A stretch of 64,000 nucleotides of DNA from Alphaproteobacteria bacterium (GCA_045638265.1 JAZUBA010000051.1:30194-94193), one strand, 5' to 3'; positions 51,594 to 51,937 are shown, counted from the stretch's first letter. Numbers and translations are program-made. Notes: generated by a model from the letters alone, not told the origin.

Positions 51594-51874
51594 TTATATC
51601 ATAAGCACAGCGAGTTGTGCATTAAGTAAATTGAGTTCATTAATGACTTCATTTGAATGATATTTGTTCATGGCATACCGATAACCTTGCACCCCACCAA
51701 TAGATAAAACACCAATAACAGCCAATATACCGAGCATTTCAGTCATTGAGCGATCGTGTTCTTGCGGATTGGTGCATCGGGTTGTGATTCGGTTTTTTGC
51801 AAATCGGATACAACCTTGTTTTTTGTTTTATCAGATATTACTAATTGATTTTGTTTGTATTTTTTCTTTGACAT
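51594..51874 (-). pseudogene. Truncated/frameshifted pilin-like gene copy (inverted partial duplicate of the family 5' end)
   Basis: Frame A: ATG 51874 -> MSKKKYKQNQLVISDKTKNKVVSDLQKTESQPDAPIRKNTIAQ* (stop 51743). Frame B (open from 51594, no upstream start): ...PQEHD RSMTEMLGILAVIGVLSIGGVQGYRYAMNKYHSNEVINELNLLNAQLAVLMI*. Frame B is homologous to the first ~50 mature residues of the 4542/52175 proteins, but with Asp in place of the -1 Gly. Own promoter module 36 bp upstream with a perfect TATAAT. Confidence 0.45.
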
Positions 51875-51909
51875 ATAAGATCCTTATGTGAAAGATGAAT
51901 CTACAATCA

Positions 51910-51937
51910 TTATAATTAAAGGTACGTTTATATGCAA
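51910..51937 (-). promoter_or_regulatory. Promoter/operator module for the small pilin-like ORF (minus-strand reading: -35 TTGCAT, spacer ATAAACGTACCTTTAAT, -10 TATAAT)
   Basis: Exact 17-bp spacing. Consensus -10. Ends 36 bp upstream of ATG 51874. Confidence 0.6.

Follow-up and report, generated by a model that had tools for sequence, protein, structure and literature searches.

A short, apparently broken pilin-like open reading frame lies on the minus strand at positions 51594 to 51937 of the 64,000-nucleotide stretch of alphaproteobacterial DNA analysed here (the window), divergent from a large intact gene at 52175. It raises the question of whether this locus supplies a small major pilin, a regulated or unorthodox peptide, or nothing at all. 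The window is a bacterial chromosome segment with a GC content of 35.5% that encodes queA, mnmE, yidC, rnpA, mutY and mlaA/C together with Sel1 and ankyrin proteins and a tandem array of mTERF-repeat genes. Searches of its ORFs with Pfam and NCBIfam found no pilus or secretion machinery in the 64 kb, with prepilin peptidase, assembly ATPase and platform protein all absent from this interval. The mTERF family is typical of eukaryotic organelles; its array occupies 46549-51451 in four copies (Pfam E-values down to 1e-27), with a counterpart at 5075-11299 of the strain sequence L006 and an extra 439-aa mTERF copy in strains L006 and L007.

The layout of the locus is largely as the first-pass annotation described it. 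A 43-codon leader ORF (51743..51874, minus strand), which has the character of a long prepilin leader relic, begins at an ATG at 51874 behind a 5' untranslated region (51875..51908) containing a Shine-Dalgarno-like AAGGA at 51885-51881. The leader ends at a TGA (51745-51743) that overlaps the ATG of the next frame (51746-51744) as ATGA (51746-51743), so that the end of the first frame meets the start of the second as had been proposed. The second frame, here termed ORF50 (51594..51746, minus strand, MTEMLGILAV...LMI*, 50 codons), was said to lack a start codon; the methionine of its RSM motif is in fact a start, and only the stretch upstream of that residue is without one. The residue at position -1 before RSM, where the family has an invariant Gly, is Asp as reported (GAT, 51755-51753). 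ORF50 starts at position +3 of the mature family sequence and has the features of a leaderless, type IVb-pilin-like α1 helix, with R-S-M-T-E supplying the Glu at +5 and MLGILAVIGVLSIGGV the hydrophobic α1-N segment of about 20 residues. Its proposed homology with the mature N-termini of the proteins encoded at 4542 and 52175 is borne out by 59% identity with the 52175 protein, and at the nucleotide level it forms a 123-nt inverted repeat (74%) with 52208-52330. ORF50 covers exactly the predicted α1 helix and stops where that helix ends; the globular domain of the type IV pilin fold is absent. Even after the frame was repaired, the fragment gave no match to N_methyl (PF07963) or TIGR02532.

The family to which this fragment belongs is very large. 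A word-indexed search with its head, G|RSMxE-MLGVLAxIGVLS, returned at least 7,928 matches, and an exhaustive search resolved 5,717 clusters at 50% identity. There are about 30 copies in the MAG SIG53 (at least 30 in one genome), while BRZ_SP bin53 has about 17 pilin-sized copies of ~200 aa with 7-aa leaders. Relatives are found in MAGs of uncultured Alphaproteobacteria from human and animal guts. Members in the window are 764 to 3,034 aa long with Cys-rich repeats. They include the intact divergent partner of the remnant (52175..54469, plus strand, 764 aa), which has a prepilin-like N-terminus followed by Cys-rich repeats, and two giant divergent genes, 25796-29674(-) (1292 aa, with ephrin-receptor-like Cys repeats) and 29911-39015(+) (3034 aa), whose first 225 coding nucleotides form a 92% inverted repeat. 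Intact relatives score just below threshold for N_methyl (12.4-18.1 bits, cutoff 21.2) and TIGR02532 (13.9-14.8, cutoff 16.3). One member carries PilS_N and Bundlin domains, and a 158-aa member (P0089) is predicted to form an α1 helix of 53 residues and a β-sheet (pLDDT 73.5); the top eight PDB matches of that model are all type IVb pilins, at a weak E-value of about 0.009 although with probability up to 1.0. The PilS_N/Bundlin member, the near-threshold motifs and the predicted fold together indicate that the family is derived from type IVb pilins. Our literature search returned no description of this pilin-headed family or of its cassette in the searchable literature.

The first-pass annotation raised the prospect that the fragment, once corrected, would be the one pilin-sized, major-subunit-like member of the family. 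This does not hold, as the fragment has no globular domain and other genomes contain many intact members of ~200 aa.

To interpret the broken frame we recovered variants of the locus from other strains. An NCBI contig contains identical copies of both the 50-aa ORF and the leader ORF of 43 aa; exact-sequence look-ups with the 764-aa protein and with ORF50 (P0118) returned no contigs, and strain variants were reached through cluster members and the mTERF neighbour. L001-L005 and L200 were recovered by the 90% protein cluster of ORF50, while L006, L007, L009 and L011-L013 were recovered via the adjacent mTERF gene and are thus independent of ORF50. A 350-aa protein in the same 90% cluster (P0122) was considered as a possible intact version and was rejected as a clustering artefact, being an unrelated membrane protein of high GC content. 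Scanning GTDB with the neighbouring mTERF gene gave no match, so there is no sister-species synteny to draw upon.

Comparison of these strains located the frameshift as a missing A at 51773 (GATGC[A]ACC, -1), about 20 nt upstream of the run at 51735..51760 that had been suspected of harbouring an indel. A sequencing or assembly error at this position is hardly credible: a single base does restore the frame, but the window, L002, L003 and L006, all assembled independently, have the identical -1 state. The window, L002 and L003 share a haplotype that combines the missing A with the change from Gly to Asp at -1, whereas Gly (GGT) is retained at -1 in L001, L004-L007, L009, L011-L013 and L200. The other haplotypes have lesions of their own. 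There is a TAA at leader codon 26 in L009, L011, L012, L013 and L004 (L004 additionally has ATG changed to ATA), at codon 32 in L005 and at codon 8 in L200. In L007 the only change is ATG to AGG, and L001 has a deletion or rearrangement. L006 has lost the leader ATG (to ATA), lacks the same A, shows a further frame disturbance with a TAA that sits in its already-shifted frame, and has also lost the RSM ATG (to ATA). Lesions upstream of the RSM Met are thus present in all nine haplotypes, which come from independent samples and mostly differ in their lesions; an intact minimal prepilin was found among none of the nine, and neither the window nor any other haplotype has an in-frame leader with a start codon. 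The window in addition lacks the Gly at -1. The only lesion shared across all strains is the truncation.

These lesions bear directly on the proposal that a +1/-1 frameshift, through slipped-strand or programmed ribosomal slippage, regulates a minimal prepilin of about 95 aa. An A put back at 51773 does join the leader in frame to G|RSMTEML, an arrangement that exists in L001, L004, L005, L007, L012 and L200, and L007 is open throughout, with a 69-aa ORF called from a TTG start. However, the indel is a change of AA to A with neither a slippery heptamer nor a simple-sequence tract at the shift site, the strains that are in frame all carry a nonsense codon, a lost start or a deletion, the window has Asp at -1, and any product would be without a globular pilin domain. 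The frameshift state varies among strains alongside these other lesions, and the leader, which has accumulated at least eight lesions across strains at a pN/pS of 0.6-1.4, looks to be evolving neutrally. We conclude that, as judged from the sequences compared, the frameshift is genuine and is no programmed or regulatory device; a regulated minimal prepilin appears very improbable.

What lies beyond the ORF50 stop suggests how the locus reached this state. Immediately downstream, at 51526..51594 on the minus strand, an out-of-frame stretch (NFSSGNVYFNNDRTYNGHGVCK) resembles the C-termini of intact family proteins, matching L027 (...GDGNVYFSYFRNRDYYAVCSG) and L029 (...VVCK*), and is followed at 51472..51512 by a terminator-like hairpin and then T-runs on both strands, an element held in common with the convergent mTERF gene. 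At the other end, collinearity with the 5' part of gene 4542 extends over the 50 codons, the leader and some 200 nt of DNA preceding it. The presence of a family C-terminal motif after the stop, followed by the hairpin and T-run, points to an out-of-frame interior deletion of a full-length gene, which would have removed the whole of the gene from the end of α1 up to its last ~22 codons. The long leader would then have decayed differently in each strain, with the -1 frameshift and the Gly-to-Asp change of the window constituting one such pair of lesions. Among the earlier readings, that of a decaying inverted partial duplicate comes closest. The copy does appear to be decaying; it is not a partial duplicate but a full gene minus its interior, since cassette, leader, α1, C-terminal remnant and terminator all remain. 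On balance we think it probable that the locus represents what is left of a gutted, once full-length gene for a prepilin-headed, Cys-rich surface protein, with no working minimal pilin, and that it would yield no functional product.

Several further observations were made on the remnant and its kin. Read in its own frame, the stretch at 51526-51594(-) differs among strains by five synonymous and one non-synonymous change; selection on this frame was considered and dismissed, as six changes probably reflect chance and L200 breaks the frame. Other split or leaderless family copies exist (L077-L079, 3001-4200; L201/L202): P0143 and P0144 start at 'MTEML', and P0086 (70 aa) is followed by an ORF of ~300 aa just downstream of a ribosomal-protein operon. 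Truncation and leader loss therefore recur in the pilin-headed family. Apparent leaders of 50-130 aa also precede G|RSMVE in L022, L073 and L076 (MAG BRZ_KG bin33) and in P0010, P0072 and P0088, so the long leader of the remnant is not unique.

The pattern of substitution within ORF50 complicates the reading of the locus as a simple relic. There is no stop or frameshift within the 50 codons in any of the 12 W-like allele sequences, which share a common stop (…AQLAV[L/F][M/V]I*), whereas the equally long leader has at least eight lesions. Pairwise pN/pS for ORF50 is 0.08-0.33, comparable with 0.14-0.19 in the neighbouring mTERF gene, its synonymous divergence equals that of the mTERF gene, at background level, and all amino-acid replacements are conservative. 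The constraint holds in strains that were recovered without reference to ORF50: among these, codons 1-37 (pN/pS about 0.15) show 11 synonymous versus 6 non-synonymous changes (p=2e-4), while codons 38-50 show 2.5 versus 4.5 and, on this count, look consistent with neutrality. The constrained codons coincide with the paralog-homologous stretch, that is, with the 123-nt inverted repeat shared with 52175. Sequence conservation as such was rejected as a sign of function, as the spacer behind ORF50 is as conserved as ORF50 or more so. A relic that had been dead since before the strains diverged should not show this pattern of substitution, and the low pN/pS excludes a long-dead relic. What the constraint requires is recent independent inactivation, conversion or homogenisation by a paralog, or ongoing translation. 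Gene conversion from known paralogs was examined and is neither shown nor excluded; the variants follow no single paralog, and no donor was identified among the paralogs examined.

A translated leaderless α1 peptide accordingly competes, as a serious rival, with recent decay and with paralog conversion. Under this alternative ORF50 is a living small gene for a leaderless α1-helix membrane peptide of 42-50 aa translated from the RSM Met, possibly by ATGA stop-start coupling with the leader in the window strain, and the peptide might mimic a pilin and modulate assembly or sensing of the family proteins. The substitution pattern, the exact correspondence with the predicted α1 helix and the ATGA overlap in the window, L002 and L003 all fit this view. 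Against it, ORF50 has no Shine-Dalgarno sequence, unlike other window genes; coupling is impossible in strains whose leader terminates 45-66 nt upstream or lacks a start codon; and the ORF50 ATG is lost in L006 (ATG to ATA). The tail at codons 38-50 is unconstrained and differs in L200, whose ORF is shorter (42 aa, ending …NEFSQNP*), the constrained stretch is the paralog-shared part that conversion would also preserve, and five sequences had been collected through protein similarity. The first-pass reading of a Met-initiated 50-aa peptide therefore draws support from the constraint on codons 1-37 and is weakened by the missing Shine-Dalgarno sequence and the start codon lost in L006. We regard a living ORF50 as an unlikely but serious alternative to the gutted remnant.

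The promoter that precedes the leader had been called a perfect member of a family of promoters. The hexamers TTGCAT(-35)-17-TATAAT(-10) are indeed present on the minus strand, at 51909..51937 (from 51910 in the earlier description), yet on their own they are within chance: one match was found versus 0.21 expected, and at least one occurred in 19 of 100 shuffles. The -35 hexamer matches TTGACA at only 3 of 6 positions, which is why a promoter scanner makes no call here, and both hexamers are weak by the E. coli consensus. What distinguishes the site is its context. The hexamers form part of a palindromic element of ~30 bp (site A, 51909..51938, minus strand, GTTGCATATAAAC-GTAC-CTTTAATTATAAT) whose GTAC core (51925-51922) sits inside the 17-nt spacer, and the ~30-bp motif, with the consensus GTTGCAnnTAAAs-GTAC-sTTTAATTAyAAT around a 4-bp core, matches the window 11 times versus 0.02 expected. 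The promoter is real in the sense of being conserved, and it forms one end of an invertible cassette which, in this lineage, stands before the family's genes.

In these cassettes a pair of sites flanks an asymmetric segment of ~105 bp, an arrangement found before gene 4542, at 29.7 kb and at the remnant locus. The cassette upstream of 4542 (4333..4503, plus strand) has arms of 35 nt that are 83% complementary, are separated by 101 nt and have matching GTAC cores, and a single cassette (29701..29877) lies between the two giant genes; formal inverted repeats are present at 4333-4367/4469-4503 and 29701-29743/29835-29877. At the remnant locus the asymmetric internal segment (51939..52046) has its 'GAAATC' end next to site A on the side of the small ORF and its A-rich end, AAAAAAAATGCATAAAAGTGAAAAAAG, facing 52175. 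It is followed by the partner site B (52047..52074, plus strand, GTAC core, degenerate outer half) and by site C (52113..52141, plus strand, TTGCAA-17-TACAAT), the promoter-like site of 52175. Sites A and B both have GTAC cores; site C has GGAC and thus mismatches site A. Site B is missing in L009, L011 and L012 and has a mutated core in L006 (GTCC) and L007 (GGAC). In L012-type strains site C is the direct partner of site A, and the resulting order of 52175, site C, a 100-nt segment, site A and the remnant is the two-gene layout seen at 29.7 kb. Relative to L012 (1901-1991), the window interval 52047-52112 contains an extra ~73 bp comprising site B and a T-rich spacer between site C and the segment. 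This insertion is present in the window, L006 and L007 and absent from L009, L011 and L012; the alignment indicates a partial duplication or replacement of the cassette.

The cassette, including its internal sequence, is conserved before the ~30 SIG53 paralogs recovered, and within that genome it occurs in both orientations. Of the cassettes in the SIG53 MAG, about 31 have the standard orientation and a single one, L063, is flipped. When L063 is aligned with L060, a segment of 166 nt, to which the internal segment of the remnant locus is homologous, shows 97% identity in reverse complement, with breakpoints exactly at GGGAC/GTCCC, while the gene flank remains collinear (92% over 1047 nt). In 31 of 35 cassettes the two partner cores are reverse complements of each other (GGAC/GTCC in 22, GTAC/GTAC in 8 and GAAC/GTTC in 1), and the four mismatches all belong to the remnant locus, in L006, L009, L011 and L012. 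An exchange is also seen between L002 and L003: on the right side of the GTAC core their sequences are identical, and on the left side they are unrelated, L002 having exchanged at the core with a different partner gene. L002 was rejected as a simple flip of the window cassette, as the segment is only ~85% identical and the partner gene is different; L001, a messy rearrangement, was given no weight here.

The alternative that the paired palindromes are operator sites, bound by a dimeric repressor or activator that loops over ~135 bp with no inversion at this locus, needs to be weighed against these data. Each site is itself palindromic, which makes the detection of an inverted repeat between any two of them trivial. 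In addition, orientation polymorphism at the remnant locus was found in none of the six syntenic strains, and no site-specific recombinase was detected nearby. The window also encodes a double-HTH XRE-family protein, 18405-19394(-), and an S24 (LexA/CI-like) peptidase-domain protein, 24119-24787(+), which would be candidate factors for the palindromic sites should they serve as operators. This alternative is nevertheless improbable in view of the precise L060/L063 flip at the cores, the breakage of the L002/L003 exchange at the core, and the covariation of the non-palindromic cores GGAC/GTCC and GAAC/GTTC as reverse complements, which operators do not require.

No site-specific recombinase was recognised by Pfam or NCBIfam among the window ORFs, and tblastn with Hin, XerD and FimB gave no match in the window or in the SIG53 loci; the recombinase may be located elsewhere in the genome. 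A Hin-like serine recombinase of 212 aa is present in a Hadza gut MAG (L032, 416-1054(-)), 1.4 kb upstream of a 125-aa family gene with a tadA-like gene between them and no cassette detected; it was rejected as the cassette enzyme as it adjoins no cassette. In metagenome scans the strict ON-junction pattern gave 0 matches; a loose motif matched 120 loci, but just 2 of these were real cassettes, and both had the standard orientation. In the 5' untranslated regions of most SIG53 paralogs (L015-L061), about 15-30 nt downstream of the proximal site, there is a third conserved element, ATAAATGCAAC; it repeats the inner half of the distal site and, from its sequence, could be an accessory binding site.

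These observations suggest a switch in which the 4-bp crossover core lies within the -35/-10 spacer and a putative recombinase would act at the cores. In SIG53 the flip would place TTGCAT and the A-tract 17 nt from a fixed TACACT and would also take a small hairpin and T-tract away from the gene-proximal junction; from this change in the promoter we infer that the flipped state is ON and that most copies are OFF, and, by extension, that an adjacent A-rich end corresponds to ON. In the window, TTGCA occurs in both inner half-sites, so hexamers would be formed in either orientation and the A-rich tract is what would change. That tract faces 29911 and 52175, while the opposite end faces 4542, the gene ending at 29674 and the remnant. 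The divergent pair at 29.7 kb with its single cassette resembles a two-gene toggle, and at the remnant locus the cassette would likewise once have separated two divergent genes of the family. All strains examined have the A-rich end, the putative ON junction of the related genome, pointing toward intact 52175 and the other end toward the remnant. Since partner cores are mismatched in most strains, the switch at the remnant locus looks locked, and the object under study is probably a partner gene that has decayed, located opposite the A-rich end of a promoter switch that is mostly locked.

It is informative to place both parts of the locus beside known systems. Like the type IVb pilins TcpA, CofA/LngA, PilS and bundlin, family members have a basic leader, a G|xxxxE motif and a hydrophobic stretch of ~20 aa; unlike them, they have Arg at +1 (RSMxE) and most are Cys-rich repeat proteins of 300-3000 aa, with the fragment here consisting of α1 only. 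Helix-only pilins such as Geobacter PilA and Flp have mature lengths of about 50-60 aa, and a prepilin peptidase processes their leaders, which end in Gly; ORF50 resembles them in length and in comprising the α1 helix alone, but has no usable leader in any strain examined. The silent pilS copies of Neisseria have neither a promoter nor the conserved N-terminus but retain the variable C-terminus. The remnant is comparable in being a truncated, apparently non-expressed pilin gene copy near an expressed one, yet it is the opposite of a silent cassette, as it has the promoter cassette and conserved N-terminus and is without the variable part. DNA inversion is tied to type IV pilin-type proteins in the Moraxella Piv system and the R64 shufflon (PilV), where C-terminal coding segments are swapped behind a constant N-terminus; in the present family coding regions are not exchanged and only the upstream segment flips. 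The cassette is closest in form to E. coli fimS (FimB/FimE) and the Mpi promoters of B. fragilis, which are invertible segments of ~100-300 bp with inverted repeats before surface-structure genes, and it resembles the Mpi capsule loci in having many loci per genome with one site type. It differs from both in that the putative -35 and -10 lie within the repeat with a 4-bp core in their spacer, so that a -35 half and A-tract would be swapped, and in being copied before at least 30 paralogs of a single family in an uncultured gut alphaproteobacterium. The pattern of a majority OFF and one flipped copy in one genome conforms to the general inverton concept (PMC11602134, PMC11892184). In the Ureaplasma mba/UU172 and Mycoplasma agalactiae vpma (Xer1) systems, site-specific inversion is reported to select, from several paralogous surface-protein genes, the one placed beside the single active promoter (PMC3047005, PMC2268961). 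The divergent pairs described here (29.7 kb; 52175 and the remnant) appear similar in sharing one switch; in mba and vpma the sites are placed within the 5' coding region or UTR and there is one expression site, whereas here each gene or pair has its own cassette.

An invertible cassette before a huge pilin-headed family is a variant of a known mechanism, and it is new. A more ambitious picture would combine an inverton of undescribed type, with its core in the promoter spacer, placed before dozens of paralogs to produce a one-of-many repertoire, with a remnant retained under purifying selection as a translated α1 pilin mimic; we offer this joint reading only tentatively and think it rather unlikely to be correct in full. 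The remnant is not the missing small major pilin, and the search for a filament subunit should turn elsewhere. That a leaderless α1 helix should look constrained is a small puzzle, whose solution could reveal a pilin-derived regulatory peptide. Of the two parts of the locus, the cassette switch matters more than the broken gene, as it probably confers phase-variable, mostly-OFF expression on a large uncharacterised family of surface proteins whose hosts are gut Alphaproteobacteria of humans and animals.
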